From the IMG/VR virus record IMGVR_UViG_2778261065_000004, positions 1 through 4,032 of that record: 4,032 nt of DNA; one strand, written 5' to 3'. The DNA is from a virus (taxonomy: Duplodnaviria > Heunggongvirae > Uroviricota > Caudoviricetes). A program made the translations under genes and the position numbers. The notes beneath the pieces were generated by a model. It saw nothing but the letters and a program-made list of their open reading frames with translations, was not told the DNA's origin and made no database searches. The stretch's first letter is position 1. The number at the start of each line of letters is the position of its first letter. Below, in pieces: positions 1-4,032 of the stretch.

Positions 1-383
1 ATCCGGTACACTGCAATGAGTCTTCCTGTTCCATCTCCCAAACCAAGGTTTTCGAGAGCCGTTTTCACCGTGCCATCCGATTTGATATCACCAAACGGAT
101 TCTTGCGGCTCAGGTATTCAACAGCAAACCCCGATCCCAGCAATTCAACAAAACCGGGCAGATCACCATTATCAAGCACATCCCGTTGCGTTTTATCACT
201 TACAAACTGGGCCAGAGCTGCAGCAATAAAGCTGGCCTGCCGAATAACCTTATTGACTTGCGCACTGGAGGCTTTCCCTGCTGTAAATCCGGATAAAAGC
301 GCAGGCAACGCTTCCCATTCCTTCTGCGACATAACATTGGCATTTTTACCCGTTGCGAATGCTTTAAAGTCATTTTTTGCCAT
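1..383 (-). CDS. Phage tail fiber protein, N-terminal part (partial; gene continues beyond position 1)
   Basis: My own translation of the minus strand from the ATG at 383..381 gives [127 protein letters not shown], open to the window edge. It is absent from the ORF track because no stop lies in the window. The start overlaps the upstream stop (TGATG). It sits directly after the gpI/gp48-like gene, where P2/Mu-type modules place the fiber gene, and resembles from memory the conserved N-terminal region of enterobacterial prophage side tail fibers. Confidence 0.8.
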
Positions 384-1063
384 CAGAGTAATACTCCCCA
401 TGCCCCTACATCAAAACCACTGATAAATTCGTTATCCATATCAAAACCAAAAAATTTTGAACCTTCCGATGGGGTTTCCACCGAAGGTGTTTCAATACCA
501 CCCGCCCACACCCCGGCGGCTTTTACTGTGAGATATCCCTGTTTAATTGCAGCAATTAACTCACGCGATACATCTGAAATATCAGTATCAGGAAAGACCC
601 AGACCGATATCGTCATGTCCTGGTTATCGACAATCTGCATTCGCAGCCCGGATCCTGCTGTCGCCGTGTCATGAATTGCTGGAAGCGAATCATTCCGTCC
701 GTCCCAGTTATTAATCGCAATCTTCGCTTTAAGGATGACACGATAAGTTTCATCGCTGAGATACATGTATCCGGAATCAGGATCATATGGCCCCTGCCAT
801 ACCCCCTGATCATATCCAAGCCCGTCGGTATCCCAGCTGAAATAGACACCTGAGATAGGCTGGCTGACAACACGGCTACGTCCGATCCACAATCCCAGAA
901 TGTCAAGTTGCACACCAACCGCAGAGTCAATATCAAATGCAGTAATCAGCCCTCTGGTGGCCGCCGCAACATCAATAAGCGGCCGGGTCATCAGATCAAC
1001 ATGCGCAAGAAATTTAGGTTTGGTGGCGTGGTAGTTCGTGATTAGTTCGGTGTATTTGCTCAT
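383..1063 (-). CDS. Phage baseplate protein, Mu gp48 / P2 gpI-type (YmfQ-like)
   Basis: 226-aa ORF ([29 protein letters not shown]...) lying between the J-like gene and the tail fiber gene. Its start overlaps the J-like stop by 4 nt (ATGA) and its stop overlaps the fiber start. The call rests on size, synteny and recalled similarity to YmfQ-like prophage proteins. Confidence 0.8.
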
Positions 1064-2259
1064 GACTCCACCGTTATAACGATATTTTCCGGGGTACAGG
1101 ACGCAGATTCGTTGTATCTGATATCAATGTTTGATGACGACAAAGCCCCCGGGGATTTCCCAATCGTCAGTTCCTGAATATCGTAATAGCGTGCATTCCC
1201 GCCACTCACCACGCCAAGATTCGCCGGTGAGTAAATGCGACTTAAAAGGACCGAATCACCAATCATCAGACTATTGATATAGTCGGAAATAGCCTGCTGG
1301 ATCTGCTGCCCTATCTGTGAGGTATAACCCGTAAAAACTTTTAATTTAATCCGGGCATAAACAGGCACATCACTGGAACGCGAGAATTTGATTACATGGG
1401 GATTGCCGTATTTATCCGGAACCGTAACGGATGTTGTACCGTGAGTGGCTGTCCCCTGGCCTTTATTCCCTCTGATAGCCTGAGCAATATCCGTTACATC
1501 ACCGCCATCCACAATTACAGCAACAGAGTGTGGCGGTAACCCGTTACCGTCCTCCGAACCAGTATCGTTTTCATAGAGTTTGTGGCGGGTTACACCGGTA
1601 ACATTAGAAACAGCACCATCCAGTGCTTCAAATGGGGTTATTGATGGCAACGCAACACTTTGCGACTGGCGGATACGTAACTCCGCGTCAGTTTCTGCCG
1701 GAGTGCCCACGGTAGCCGCAGCAGGATTAGTTACCGAAACCCAGCCACGGGTTGGCGTATTTATTTCAGTGATAGTTCCAGCCAGCGCCGCCACTGCACC
1801 ACTGACGGAACATGTTGCAGTCACCATCACTGTACCATCCACGCCGACCACCACTGAAGCAGGCAAACGCCATATCACATTATTACTGTCTTTCACGCTG
1901 CCATTAATGATGGTTGTTCCGGCAGTTCCTGTAAGAAGCAAATCAACCGTAGAATTCGTCGCGCCTTTACGTGAAATACCATTTATTTTCACGTTACTGG
2001 TCAGTGCAGCCCCATAGCCGGTTGCCGGTGAAAAACAGTTGTAGACAGTTATCGCCGTATTATTGGCATCATGAATCGCCAACGCCATCAGAGCCACCAT
2101 CTGGCCGTCTTTGCTGTCCGGTTCGAGGTAGGCATCACTGCCATAAATCTGCTGAAAATAGCTAATCAGGGTGCTGAGTATCGTCTGATAATCAGGCGCA
2201 CTGATCCCCTCCGCGGTTACCTTTGCAGATAAACCGAGAGAATCAAGGTTCAGAGCCAT
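1060..2259 (-). CDS. Baseplate J-like protein (Mu gp47 / P2 gpJ / T4 gp6 family)
   Basis: 399-aa ORF (MALNLDSLGLSAKVTAEGISAPDYQTILSTLISYFQQIYG...) of the size and position expected for a baseplate J protein. GGAGG lies 4 nt upstream of the ATG at 2259; the start overlaps the preceding stop (TAATG). Confidence 0.88.
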   Translation of the reverse strand: MALNLDSLGLSAKVTAEGISAPDYQTILSTLISYFQQIYGSDAYLEPDSKDGQMVALMALAIHDANNTAITVYNCFSPATGYGAALTSNVKINGISRKGATNSTVDLLLTGTAGTTIINGSVKDSNNVIWRLPASVVVGVDGTVMVTATCSVSGAVAALAGTITEINTPTRGWVSVTNPAAATVGTPAETDAELRIRQSQSVALPSITPFEALDGAVSNVTGVTRHKLYENDTGSEDGNGLPPHSVAVIVDGGDVTDIAQAIRGNKGQGTATHGTTSVTVPDKYGNPHVIKFSRSSDVPVYARIKLKVFTGYTSQIGQQIQQAISDYINSLMIGDSVLLSRIYSPANLGVVSGGNARYYDIQELTIGKSPGALSSSNIDIRYNESASCTPENIVITVES

Positions 2260-2612
2260 TACGCCTCCGATGTAACAGTCGTTATTCCATAAAGAGTGTC
2301 GATTTCAGCGGAAAACATGACACGTCGGGTCGTGGTATCCACCGTCGTATTGAAAGAGAGGATTGATTTAACGCCCCGCGTTTCGAGGATGCGCTTACGG
2401 ATCGCCAGGTTGTAGGTTTCCGGCTTCTGCTTACCGAGCACGGACTGGATCCACGGTGTTCCCTCTGTGGTATCAAGAAACCATTGCCCATACCACAATT
2501 CGAATCGCGTTTTCACAGCCTGCGCCACGGCCTCAGGCGAGTTAATCAGCCAGGTGTCATCACCGCTGCCAAAGGCGTAATCGCCATCGGCGTCTTCACG
2601 TCTGTATCGCAT
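2259..2612 (-). CDS. Small baseplate protein in the P2 gpW / Mu gp46 / T4 gp25 position
   Basis: 117-aa ORF (MRYRREDADGDYAFGSGDDTWLINSPEAVAQAVKTRFELWYGQWF...) located between the spike and J-like genes and coupled to both by 1-nt overlaps (TGATG upstream, TAATG downstream). Family is assigned mainly by synteny and size; the sequence match was not verified. Confidence 0.7.
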   Translation of the reverse strand: MRYRREDADGDYAFGSGDDTWLINSPEAVAQAVKTRFELWYGQWFLDTTEGTPWIQSVLGKQKPETYNLAIRKRILETRGVKSILSFNTTVDTTTRRVMFSAEIDTLYGITTVTSEA

Positions 2613-3364
2613 CAGTTTACCCCGTCGGTACTGCTTCCACCGCGCTGAACACCACCATGAGTGTGTGTATCATCGATTGGCTTGCCATTAGCCTTCACGC
2701 TCCCCAAAAACTCAACAGCACCAGTGATTTTTGAAGCCACACCAGAAACAACAGACCCCACCATGCCCCCCATCCAGGTTAACAGGCCATGAATGGTTAC
2801 TTTCTCAGAAAAATCAGCCAGAGGGGCAACCACATCAAGACCACCCGGAGCGACAATTTTAATTTTCCTGGTATCAGGATTAAGCTCAAAATAGGTGCTG
2901 CCGTCGTCACTACGCAACTGTGTGGCACTGGTATTAATACCGCTAATCTTCCTTGCCTGCGACTGGGGACCGACAATACAAAACGCATCCGATAAATCAT
3001 GCATTCTGTCATCGACAGGCTCCTGTATCCCGCCACTCTGCCACCAGAAATCAATACAACGATCGGCAAAAATCACCAAACATTCATCACCGGCTTTAAC
3101 CGGGAACGTTAGCGTACAGCCTCCGCCGCGCGGGAATACCACTGGTACATCCACCAGCAGGGGTAATATCGTCGACTGGTTGATTCCATTTGAGTCCGGC
3201 TCATAGCCTTTAATCGCAGGTTGAACAGCCACTGTTACCGTGTCCGGATCAAATGACTGGACGATGCCGGGCATAGAAACACGCAGCGCCGACATGACAG
3301 AGCCAGCAAGTCTTACATCGGCCTGTTCTTTGCTACCAAGTTGAGCGCTTAAAGAAACGGGCAT
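2612..3364 (-). CDS. Baseplate spike / assembly protein V (P2 gpV / Mu gp45-like)
   Basis: 250-aa ORF and first gene of the module. The C-terminus ...PIDDTHTHGGVQRGGSSTDGVN carries an HxH motif (His codons at 2663..2665 and 2657..2659) followed by a Gly/Ser/Thr-rich tip, like the metal-binding apex of P2 gpV and Mu gp45 spikes. GGAGA lies 7 nt upstream of the ATG at 3364. Confidence 0.85.
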   Translation of the reverse strand: MPVSLSAQLGSKEQADVRLAGSVMSALRVSMPGIVQSFDPDTVTVAVQPAIKGYEPDSNGINQSTILPLLVDVPVVFPRGGGCTLTFPVKAGDECLVIFADRCIDFWWQSGGIQEPVDDRMHDLSDAFCIVGPQSQARKISGINTSATQLRSDDGSTYFELNPDTRKIKIVAPGGLDVVAPLADFSEKVTIHGLLTWMGGMVGSVVSGVASKITGAVEFLGSVKANGKPIDDTHTHGGVQRGGSSTDGVN

Positions 3365-3383
3365 TCATATGTCTCCAGCAAGT

Positions 3384-3410
3384 AAAAAACCCGCCGGGTG
3401 GCGGGTTTTA
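3384..3410 (-). terminator. Rho-independent terminator hairpin (potentially bidirectional)
   Basis: Stem cccgcc (3390-3395), loop gggt (3396-3399), stem ggcggg (3400-3405): a perfect 6-bp GC-rich stem. On the minus-strand transcript it is followed by U6 (plus-strand A6 at 3384-3389); on the plus strand by T4 (3406-3409). It lies 63 bp downstream of the stop of the 113-aa gene. Confidence 0.7.
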
Positions 3411-3423
3411 TGTAGCTAGTTTT

Positions 3424-3458
3424 CTTTCCATGGCGATAGAAGCAATTACCGTGGAAAG
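3424..3458. repeat. Imperfect inverted repeat, 10-bp arms with 15-nt spacer
   Basis: ctttccatgg (3424-3433) pairs with ccgtggaaag (3449-3458); 9 of 10 positions are Watson-Crick and one is a T/G pair. It lies between the stop of the 113-aa gene and the terminator. Confidence 0.45.
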
Positions 3459-3472
3459 TTAATTTAGCGAAC

Positions 3473-3814
3473 TCATTGCTTATTTTCAGATAGCACCAAT
3501 CTACATTCTTCTTTTTTTAGAGTCGTAAGAGATTGGCCGCTATCGGAAAAAGAATAACCGCACTCGGAAGCGAGTTGACGCAGAGCTATTTCACCATAAC
3601 TATCACCATGTTCTTTCATTAACTCATCACCAAAATCCGCCTCACGACCATTAGATACAGCGTCCATAGCCGCATTAGAAACAGCCCTATTTGTGATCTC
3701 TCTCTTGATGATGTAGTTATCAGCCAGTGAGGTGTGCAGCCCAAAAAAATCATTCAGCGTTCCACCTACACAAATTGTTGGAGTCAACACTGCGAGAAGG
3801 AATATTTTCTTCAT
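3473..3814 (-). CDS. Hypothetical small secreted protein, unrecognised family (moron-like cargo gene)
   Basis: 113-aa ORF MKKIFLLAVLTPTICVGGTLNDFFGL... with a typical Sec signal peptide (two Lys, then a hydrophobic core, then VGG), no canonical lipobox, and two Cys in the mature part. AGGAGA (3823-3828) lies 8 nt upstream of the ATG. Hand counts on sample stretches give about 37-47% GC, against about 53% for a sampled baseplate stretch. It is followed by its own terminator. Confidence 0.7.
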   Translation of the reverse strand: MKKIFLLAVLTPTICVGGTLNDFFGLHTSLADNYIIKREITNRAVSNAAMDAVSNGREADFGDELMKEHGDSYGEIALRQLASECGYSFSDSGQSLTTLKKEECRLVLSENKQ

Positions 3815-3822
3815 TACAAATG

Positions 3823-3828
3823 TCTCCT
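3823..3828 (-). promoter_or_regulatory. Shine-Dalgarno sequence (AGGAGA) of the 113-aa gene
   Basis: Plus-strand tctcct is AGGAGA on the minus strand, 8 nt 5' of the ATG at 3814..3812. Confidence 0.6.
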
Positions 3829-3859
3829 ATAGCTGATTTCTTAAAAAAATTAATTACAG

Positions 3860-3881
3860 TACGTTGTGCCAGTATTGGTCG
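3860..3881. repeat. Copy 1 of a 22-bp imperfect direct repeat (tacgttgtgccagtattggtcg)
   Basis: Matches 3929-3950 (tacgtagtgcctgtattggttg) at 19 of 22 positions, 69 bp apart, in the AT-rich region upstream of the 113-aa gene. Confidence 0.5.
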
Positions 3882-3928
3882 TCTGGCATTCACGATGTAC
3901 TGCATTCCCATTAATCGTTCCTGTGGTA

Positions 3929-3950
3929 TACGTAGTGCCTGTATTGGTTG
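3929..3950. repeat. Copy 2 of the 22-bp imperfect direct repeat (tacgtagtgcctgtattggttg)
   Basis: See copy 1; the shared core is gtgccNgtattggt. Confidence 0.5.
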
Positions 3951-4032
3951 TATAAGATTCTGTTCTAACTTGGATTTGCCCCTATATTTCCAGACATCTG
4001 TTATCACTTAACCCATTACAAGCCCGCTGCCG

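Follow-up and report, generated by a model that had tools for sequence, protein, structure and literature searches.

How are the baseplate genes of a contractile-tailed phage expressed when a strong terminator-like hairpin stands directly in front of the spike gene, and what does such a hairpin do there? The question is raised by a stretch of DNA of 4,032 nucleotides (nt) from a tailed virus (Duplodnaviria; Heunggongvirae; Uroviricota; Caudoviricetes), positions 1 to 4,032 of the IMG/VR virus record IMGVR_UViG_2778261065_000004, which we refer to at its full length as the window. Every substantial open reading frame (ORF) in the window lies on the minus strand, and the hairpin, read in the same sense, separates a short accessory ("cargo") gene from the gene for the central baseplate spike. 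We propose as the likely explanation that the hairpin is an intrinsic terminator read through by Q-modified RNA polymerase, which would insulate the genes downstream of it and would form the fixed 3' boundary of a slot for accessory genes (morons) within a single long late operon. The features at the center of this proposal are the following.

3473-3814, minus strand: cargo ORF, 113 amino acids (aa), with a signal-peptide-like N-terminus; matches phrog_13007 (unknown function) at 2e-38
3384-3409, minus strand: intrinsic-terminator-like hairpin, identified by sequence, fold energy, conservation, compensatory changes and positional enrichment
3365-3383, minus strand: spacer of 19 nt between the U-tract of the hairpin and the spike ATG, with a GGAG Shine-Dalgarno sequence at 3376-3373; too short for a promoter
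2612-3364, minus strand: central baseplate spike gene, 250 aa; matches PF18352 at 6e-44 and contains the GpV Apex motif PF18946

Anatomy of the hairpin

In minus-strand sense the hairpin reads 5'-AAAACCCGCC-ACCC-GGCGGGTTTT-TT-3', with AAAACCCGCC/GGCGGGTTTT as its stem. An inverted-repeat search gave the arms as 3386-3395 and 3400-3409, each of 10 nt and 100% complementary, with a loop of 4 nt; the stem of 10 base pairs (bp) includes a 6-bp GC core (CCCGCC/GGCGGG), the tetraloop is ACCC, and a U6 tract (3389-3384) follows directly after the GC core. The original prediction had placed the hairpin and its U6 at 3384-3410, about 20 nt before the spike ATG at 3364, and these coordinates proved exact, the distance from the U6 tract to the ATG measuring 19 nt. 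The fold has a free energy of -16.5 kcal/mol, compared with a mean of -6.0 kcal/mol for shuffled sequences (z = -5.2), and none of 200 shuffles was equally stable. Lying in an intergenic region, 62 nt past the stop codon of the co-oriented cargo gene, the hairpin displays the characters by which intrinsic terminators are recognized: a GC-rich stem within the range of about 5-11 bp, a short loop, a run of U, and a structure that is kept in relatives.

Positions 1-3970 of the window are 100% identical to a prophage of Escherichia coli BCE049, and our own scan of that prophage identified this hairpin as the sole strong terminator-like hairpin in late-gene sense across about 23 kb, from the lysis genes to the tail fibre gene. 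A consensus terminator scan of the window did not list it, because the rule applied there counts the A-U extension as part of the stem and too few T residues are then left; the homologous hairpins in two relatives (loci L003 and L004) are listed by the same scan. In the phage records inspected the hairpin carries no annotation, and the literature searched yielded neither transcript data for this phage group nor an earlier description of the hairpin or of the accessory-gene hotspot that it borders.

It had also been suggested that the hairpin could terminate plus-strand transcripts. A T4 run does follow the stem on the plus strand as well; however, of 101 unique relatives only 12 have the matching A-run (4 nt or more, 5' of the stem), and in the BCE049 annotation no plus-strand gene converges on the hairpin. 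We therefore rejected bidirectional termination as a selected function.

Absence of a promoter before the spike gene

Two claims of the original prediction concerned promoters, and both are borne out. The 19 nt between the hairpin and the spike ATG hold the ribosome-binding site, and nothing in them scores as a promoter, in line with the view that there is no room for one; as to the region between the cargo gene and the terminator, where no convincing promoter had been seen, a promoter scan turned up no sigma-70-like site on the minus strand at any point of the window, nor in the matching 900 nt of the identical E. coli locus (L001, 23300-24200). Downstream of the spike gene lie four further genes.

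2259-2612, minus strand: gpW/gp25-like baseplate wedge or sheath-initiator gene (W), 117 aa, identified from the annotation in relatives
1060-2259, minus strand: baseplate J/gp47-family gene (J), 399 aa; PF04865 at 6e-16
383-1063, minus strand: DUF2612 baseplate gene in the gpI position (I), 226 aa; PF11041 at 5e-46
29-383, minus strand: tail-fibre gene, N-terminal fragment; in RefSeq for BCE049, phage tail protein, incomplete, missing C-terminus

The 117-aa gpW/gp25-like protein has no Pfam match, and its relatives are annotated either as contractile injection system sheath initiator or as baseplate wedge subunit; the spike protein, called a membrane-puncturing spike protein in RefSeq, matches TIGR01644 (phage_P2_V) below threshold. 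From spike through W, J and I to fibre, the genes follow the P2-type order V-W-J-I-fibre. In phage P2, the V-W-J-I-H-G operon has its own late promoter, and one might accordingly suppose that an activator-dependent baseplate promoter overlaps the hairpin or lies just downstream of it here too, a supposition to which the shared gene order (V-W-J-I-H in P2) and the sub-threshold phage_P2_V match lend some color. We find it very hard to credit. The 19-nt gap immediately upstream of the spike gene is occupied by the ribosome-binding site and contains neither a promoter match nor a -10-like hexamer, what relatives conserve is the T-run and GGAG, a block that is not promoter-like, and no P2 Ogr-type activator gene is annotated in the prophage. 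A promoter within the gap or overlapping the hairpin was rejected on the first two of these grounds.

A second inverted repeat (CTTTCCATGG/CCGTGGAAAG, arms 3424-3433 and 3449-3458, loop 15 nt) is present between the cargo stop codon and the terminator. It is specific to the cargo, and relatives conserve just half of it (L004 has the 3' half). It probably drives the leader-like Rfam matches in the region upstream of the terminator, all of which are sub-threshold (Phe_leader, 26 bits vs 55; Trp_leader, 21 vs 41; P9, 19 vs 43). The possibility that the terminator is part of an attenuator or leader was rejected, because no upstream segment pairs with its 5' arm, the second hairpin is cargo-specific, and the Rfam matches fall short of their thresholds.

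A lambdoid late operon with a Q-like gene

The genes downstream of the hairpin are indispensable for a contractile tail and have no promoter, so polymerase must arrive from upstream without terminating. The original prediction had reached the same conclusion, invoking antiterminated late transcription as in lambdoid or hybrid phages, and had recommended inspecting the upstream sequence for a late promoter and an antiterminator gene. The prophage of BCE049 has the make-up of a lambdoid/myovirus hybrid, and candidates for both lie within it about 20.6 kb upstream of the spike hairpin.

The early part of the prophage carries integrase, excisionase, recET, kil, repressor and cro-like genes and replication genes; then come a DUF1133 gene, three small genes, holin, endolysin, Rz, terminase and head genes; and the tail part comprises genes for the sheath (DUF3383), the tube (DUF3277), the tape measure, a baseplate protein, the baseplate plug and a 346-aa protein that is the baseplate hub (phrog_196 at 2e-79; PF22759), followed by the 113-aa ORF, spike, W, J, DUF2612 and tail fibre. 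From holin to tail fibre the late genes lie on one strand, except for one small opposite-strand ORF between the Rz genes and the terminase. The spike gene had been taken for the first of the baseplate genes, which must be corrected: three others (baseplate protein, plug and hub) immediately precede it in the same orientation, making it the fourth in a series, and no operon starts there.

The DUF1133 gene (L002, 2775-3329) encodes a Q-like protein (DUF1133 at 6e-108; phrog_753, "anti-termination protein Q-like", at 2e-81) that matches PF06530 (Phage_antitermQ) with 27.5 bits, the cut-off being 26. In a survey of Stx phages, DUF1133 proteins were assigned to the Q antiterminators by HHpred (PMC8136144). 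At the Q stop codon is a promoter-like site, TTGACT-18-TATATT (L002, 2778-2749), recognized by consensus match only (10/12 positions), and about 60 nt downstream of it a hairpin with T5 (L002, 2687-2671); two more terminator-like hairpins occur between the Q-like gene and the holin gene. Judged by sequence, the Q-like gene, the promoter-like site and the nearby hairpin appear to represent the classical Q / pR' / tR' arrangement, and read-through from this putative late promoter would supply the baseplate genes. Hairpins of the same CCCGC-loop-GCGGG-T type end several accessory genes between Q and holin (L002, 615-636, 1775-1800 and 2671-2687), and near-identical ones end other accessory genes of the prophage (L001, 43028 and 45867-45884, the latter near hokD).

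Conservation among related loci

By locating the hub gene, a 111-aa gene (phrog_3443), the spike gene and W, we surveyed 160 loci encoding a relative of the spike protein (47-99% protein identity), taken from one genome per bacterial species and from IMG/VR and supplemented by annotated phages and prophages. With a threshold of -9 kcal/mol and a distance of at most 60 nt upstream of the spike ATG, an equivalent hairpin was found in 131 of the 160 loci; the density is 13.6 per kb at this position compared with 0.08 per kb elsewhere on the sense strand, a 170-fold enrichment. The distance from the hub (or the 111-aa gene) to the spike gene ranges from overlap up to 2.8 kb, and three architectures were distinguished. 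In architecture (a), comprising 14 loci, mostly from Photorhabdus, Arsenophonus, Sodalis and Izhakiella, the hub stop codon overlaps the spike start and there is no hairpin; phages ZF40 and pOW20-A are of the same kind. Architecture (b), with about 10 loci, has the hairpin and no cargo, in the order hub-hairpin-spike (L063-L065, L068, L075, L080, L081) or 111-aa gene-hairpin-spike (L022, L029, L099). In architecture (c), the hub gene is followed, usually after the 111-aa gene, by 0.1-2.8 kb of variable genes, and these by the hairpin (120 of 123 loci) and the spike gene.

The structure of the hairpin is maintained while its sequence varies. Among 89 unique hairpins the commonest stem is CCCGC/GCGGG, and variants appear as pairs (CCTGC/GCAGG, GCCGC/GCGGC, CCCACC/GGTGGG, GGTCGCC/GGCGGCC, and, in phage Mulock, GCCCAC/GTGGGT); the loops vary freely (40 different sequences, 3-9 nt long), and the T-run measures 4-9 nt with a mode of 6 (5-9 nt in 87 of the 89 unique relatives). 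When 54 distinct hairpins were aligned, 92% of stem cells were paired, against only 34-59% in controls with slid partners, and five of the eight pairs had changed on both sides; the covariation score was 0.201, compared with 0.144 in shuffles, and none of 500 shuffles reached 0.201. Sequence conservation is high over the stem, the T-run and GGAG, and drops to about 0 bits just 5' of the stem. Because conservation begins at the 5' edge of the stem, the hairpin belongs to the 5' flank of the spike gene, and the variable DNA ends at that edge. The anatomy, stability, position and conservation of the hairpin, the absence of promoter matches and the gene context are thus matters of direct observation.

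Upstream of the hairpin, and always upstream, a crude ORF call yielded about 58 ORF families in 108 unique slots. The idea that the terminator had been inserted together with the cargo does not survive this survey, since the hairpin is fixed at the spike 5' flank, next to dozens of unrelated cargos, and is present in several loci with no cargo at all. The commonest cargo (about 26 surveyed loci; L004, 6404-7575) consists of two genes, for proteins of about 257-266 aa and 123-142 aa, the second of which (including a 126-aa phrog_5176 protein) has a weak PADLOC match to HEPN_IX (2e-6), making the unit a candidate toxin-antitoxin or defence pair. The gap before the cargo of L004 holds a promoter-like site, TAGACA-16-TAAACT with an upstream TG. 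Other cargos include a YafO-family toxin with an upstream partner (L159), a 409-aa coiled-coil T5orf172/MUG113 protein (L023, L028 and L086), a DUF2335 membrane protein (L048), and lipoproteins. The isolated Salmonella phage SEN34 has the same hairpin together with an annotated Q-like gene and a lambdoid layout.

SEN34 additionally carries, right after its spike gene, a second terminator-like hairpin (AAAGCCCCGGG...CTTCGGGGCTTTTT; L009, 7409-7648), followed by a 45-aa ORF before W; this site is a second small accessory slot, one gene downstream. In the distant, virulent Klebsiella phage KpV52 (L173, 1448-1735), a non-coding gap of 286 nt separates the gene in the hub position from the spike gene; the gap opens with a hairpin that has no U-tract and ends, just before the spike gene, in TTGAC-rich sequence. 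It may be that transcription units of this tail family have long been divided at the hub/spike junction. A hairpin cluster that 28 loci show some 3 kb past the spike start was rejected; its members are weak, lie inside the conserved coding sequence of the fibre N-terminus, and are false positives of a relaxed scan.

The cargo-less loci of architecture (b) bear on a different explanation, in which the hairpin is intrinsic to the phage and independent of cargo, acting as a deliberately leaky internal terminator or as a stabilizer of messenger RNA 3' ends. As a leaky terminator, it would make the late transcript more abundant on its upstream side (head to hub) than on its downstream side (spike, wedge and fibres). 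Maintenance of the hairpin without morons in some 10 loci from several genera, with diverged stems and loops, would be expected on this account, as would the fact that this is the only strong hairpin inside the structural genes, and in more distant relatives the boundary is a separate transcription unit or a gap (the 286 nt of KpV52). Its absence from the 14 loci with overlapping hub and spike genes and from ZF40 and pOW20-A, on the other hand, means that this type of tail does not require it. Hub and spike are needed in equal numbers (as trimers) in contractile-tail baseplates, and the break point therefore matches no obvious step in stoichiometry; moreover, Q-modified polymerase would be expected to ignore the hairpin, which leaves no attenuation during lytic growth. 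We consider this explanation unlikely, though less so than the other alternatives discussed here.

The cargo and the condition of this copy

The accessory region of the window contains three further features besides the 113-aa ORF.

3850-3970, minus strand: 3' remnant of an 80-aa ORF, of which a full-length, unannotated copy is present at L001 23850-24092
3411-3447, minus strand: scar of an earlier cargo, non-coding; L004 and L005 have the homologous sequence as the last part, with the stop codon, of their 126-aa phrog_5176 gene
3971-4032, no strand assigned: IS2-family (IS3-like) end of 62 nt; the BCE049 match stops at 3970 and the rest matches thousands of IS2 copies

The 113-aa ORF has its own AGGAGA ribosome-binding site; its product has no match in Pfam, NCBIfam, PADLOC or PDB, and belongs to a family (F6) with six members in the slot survey. 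The full-length 80-aa ORF (MLKWILLLVYFVTLSSMAAV...) encodes a signal peptide followed by four Cys residues and Thr/Gly/Cys-rich repeats with TTNTGTTY-like motifs, and contains an internal direct repeat. In BCE049 its start ATG overlaps the hub stop codon (ATGCTTAA), it takes the position of the 111-aa gene conserved in most relatives, and the 113-aa ORF begins 35 nt after it, an interval too small to accommodate a promoter of its own. The GC content across the cargo is 37-44%, compared with 47-56% in the flanking spike and hub genes, and the description of the gene upstream of the hairpin as AT-rich accessory cargo is thereby upheld. Of the characters of a moron, the cargo has the position as extra DNA between conserved genes, the deviant base composition, and a terminator, one that is shared with the other cargos found there. 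At the thresholds of the scan, no promoter-like site precedes either the 113-aa or the 80-aa ORF, and a weak or internal cargo promoter may exist.

Homology between the window and its relatives breaks at 3447, and the segment 3411-3447 is, by its homology, the scar of a cargo replacement. Such replacement brings up the idea that the hairpin serves in evolution mainly as a short conserved linker through which cargos are swapped by short-homology recombination, with termination incidental. The scar of a previous cargo 3' end next to the hairpin would suit a linker, as would the near-identical CCCGC-loop-GCGGG-T hairpins behind other accessory genes of the same prophage (L001, 43028 and 45867) and the break of homology at the 5' edge of the stem between relatives with different cargos. 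CCCGC...GCGGG followed by a T-run is, however, the generic form of strong enterobacterial terminators, so that the resemblance can be convergent; the compensatory changes in the stem and the 40 free loops indicate selection on structure and not on sequence identity; and the 5' side of the slot, at which no examination was aimed, showed no conserved sequence to match. As the main role of the hairpin, the linker is thus improbable. The near-constant CCCGC...GCGGG-T6 might additionally provide a short-homology anchor for cargo exchange, which fits the break points and is not required by them.

The IS2-family end interrupts the 80-aa ORF at 3970/3971. Its transposase gene is co-oriented with the late genes, with its 3' (right) end abutting the cargo, as judged from the orientation in an annotated copy (L172); neither 5,426 complete E. 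coli genomes nor IMG/VR contain the junction between phage and IS2. Downstream of the truncated fibre gene, BCE049 has an unannotated stretch of about 700 nt, a tail-fibre assembly gene and a partial invertase/recombinase gene, and the prophage is probably defective. A close relative in E. coli VL40 (L007, 731-2494 and 8032-9494) adjoins an ipaH effector gene, and carries IS2, IS150 and other insertion sequences (IS) in its baseplate J and tape-measure genes, a decay pattern of the Shigella type. On the strength of such IS-laden relatives beside ipaH, the window probably stems from a strain resembling Shigella or enteroinvasive E. coli.

It had been offered as an alternative that the baseplate genes are an orphaned remnant, and in that case the hairpin would in this genome be a functionless relic, merely inherited by a defective prophage in which nothing downstream is productively expressed. 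That this particular copy is degraded is correct: the IS2-family insertion at 3971 cuts the small upstream ORF, the fibre gene is cut short, with partial recombinase and assembly genes behind it, and close relatives in Shigella-like E. coli strains have suffered further IS insertions in their J and tape-measure genes. Yet the spike, W, J and DUF2612 ORFs are intact in the window, and the hairpin is conserved across intact, isolated phages, being unmutated relative to the inducible or isolated phages vB_EcoM-606R2, SEN34 and Mulock. A relic would in any case account for the present state of one copy and not for the existence of the element throughout the family, and we regard it as a poor explanation of the hairpin.

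A proposed terminator at the edge of an accessory-gene slot

We return to the explanation that we favor, a Q-read-through terminator that insulates the downstream genes from an accessory-gene slot. The slot would lie between the hub and spike genes, with the hairpin as its fixed 3' edge. In the repressed prophage, the hairpin would stop unmodified polymerase that arises in the slot or enters it, whether from cargo promoters (in relatives), from spurious promoters in AT-rich cargo or, in this copy, from read-out of IS2, and the spike, wedge and fibre genes would thereby remain silent in the lysogen. During lytic growth, Q-modified polymerase from the late promoter would ignore this hairpin as well as the three hairpins nearer to the promoter, and the spike-W-J-I-fibre genes, having no promoter of their own, would be expressed through that read-through, in keeping with the established behaviour of phage Q proteins, which allow polymerase to pass terminators of this sort.

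Several points weigh against this explanation. Termination by the hairpin, read-through under Q and the insulating role are what we infer from sequence; neither a Q-binding element nor a sigma-dependent pause element was identified, no search having been aimed at them, and we know of no binding motif for DUF1133-type Q proteins, while the match of the Q-like protein to PF06530 barely exceeds the cut-off. With no promoter detected for the present cargo, there is no identified promoter to insulate against in this lineage; the overlap of the 80-aa ORF with the hub stop codon, and the short interval from there to the 113-aa ORF, make the cargo of the window look translationally coupled to the hub, and it may simply be expressed late. 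The copy at hand, in a degraded prophage with IS2 upstream and a truncated fibre gene, may no longer act. Finally, the hairpin is present also in loci without cargo, so its role may not depend on morons.

For these empty slots, several readings are open: the hairpin could be the leftover of a lost cargo, it could be a phage-intrinsic leaky terminator or RNA-end stabilizer, or it could have preceded the cargo. We tentatively entertain a version of the last, in which the terminator came first and the cargo second, a phage-intrinsic hairpin shielding the spike, wedge and fibre genes and so making the junction a "safe harbour" at which foreign genes that bring promoters could settle with no damage to the lysogen; on balance we think it rather doubtful. 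If true, it would explain both the accumulation there of some 58 unrelated ORF families, toxin-antitoxin and defence-like ones among them, and the hairpin in empty slots.

Comparison with known systems

Morons, according to PMC3594210, are additions of DNA with deviant GC content that bring a promoter and a terminator of their own and are expressed while the prophage is repressed; lambdoid examples under the Juhala/Hendrix definition, reviewed in the same paper, are HK97 gene 15 and the bor and lom genes of lambda. The arrangement described here resembles them in that AT-richer extra DNA sits between conserved late tail-region genes and is followed by a factor-independent terminator, in the path of a Q-antiterminated transcript, and, as with HK97 gene 15, the cargo is inside the tail operon. 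It differs from lambdoid morons in that no promoter was found for the cargo, whose first ORF overlaps the hub stop codon, and in that the terminator is not specific to one moron: it is constant at the spike 5' flank across the roughly 58 cargo ORF families and in some empty slots. The hairpin would thus appear to act as moron terminators do, within a Q-dependent late operon of lambda type, with a cargo for which, at the available sensitivity, no promoter of its own was found.

As in the Q cassette of lambda, the Q-like gene is followed directly by a consensus-like promoter and, close by, a terminator-like hairpin, and as in the lambda late operon, lysis, head and tail genes follow on one strand. 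Unlike lambda Q, the Q-like protein is of the DUF1133 type and just reaches the PF06530 cut-off, and unlike the siphovirus tail of lambda, the tail here is contractile and includes a P2-like spike-W-J-I module. P2 has the same order of baseplate genes in its late operon. P2-like phages also have a variable region, orf30, between S and V, and hence, like the phages described here, a variable site for accessory genes immediately upstream of the spike (V) gene. The difference from P2 is that no promoter lies between the terminator and the spike gene, and that read-through from an upstream lambdoid late promoter would take the place of an Ogr-type activator.

A comparable logic is known from a very different kind of element. 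In the conjugative transposon Tn916, a terminator is reported to block premature expression driven by outside or upstream transcription (PMC11658703) and to be overridden by antitermination of the element's own, and the hairpin described here may combine a terminator serving as insulator with antitermination in the same way. Tn916, an element of Gram-positive bacteria, is of a different type and uses a different antitermination mechanism, and the likeness is one of analogy only.

Significance

Taken singly, the element is ordinary: a terminator that ends accessory genes inside an antiterminated late operon. More telling than the window itself are the hairpins without cargo and the family-wide landmark, a hairpin and T-run 11-20 nt before the spike ATG that mark the 3' edge of an accessory-gene hotspot in widespread Enterobacterales prophages combining lambdoid control with contractile tails. 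The hotspot is a place to look for toxin-antitoxin, defence and surface-modifying genes, and the landmark offers a test bed for two questions, the possible insulation of structural genes by embedded terminators in lysogens and the ability of DUF1133-type Q proteins to bring about processive antitermination. Should the hairpin be evolutionarily older than the cargo, this order would go some way towards explaining why morons pile up at a few fixed sites.

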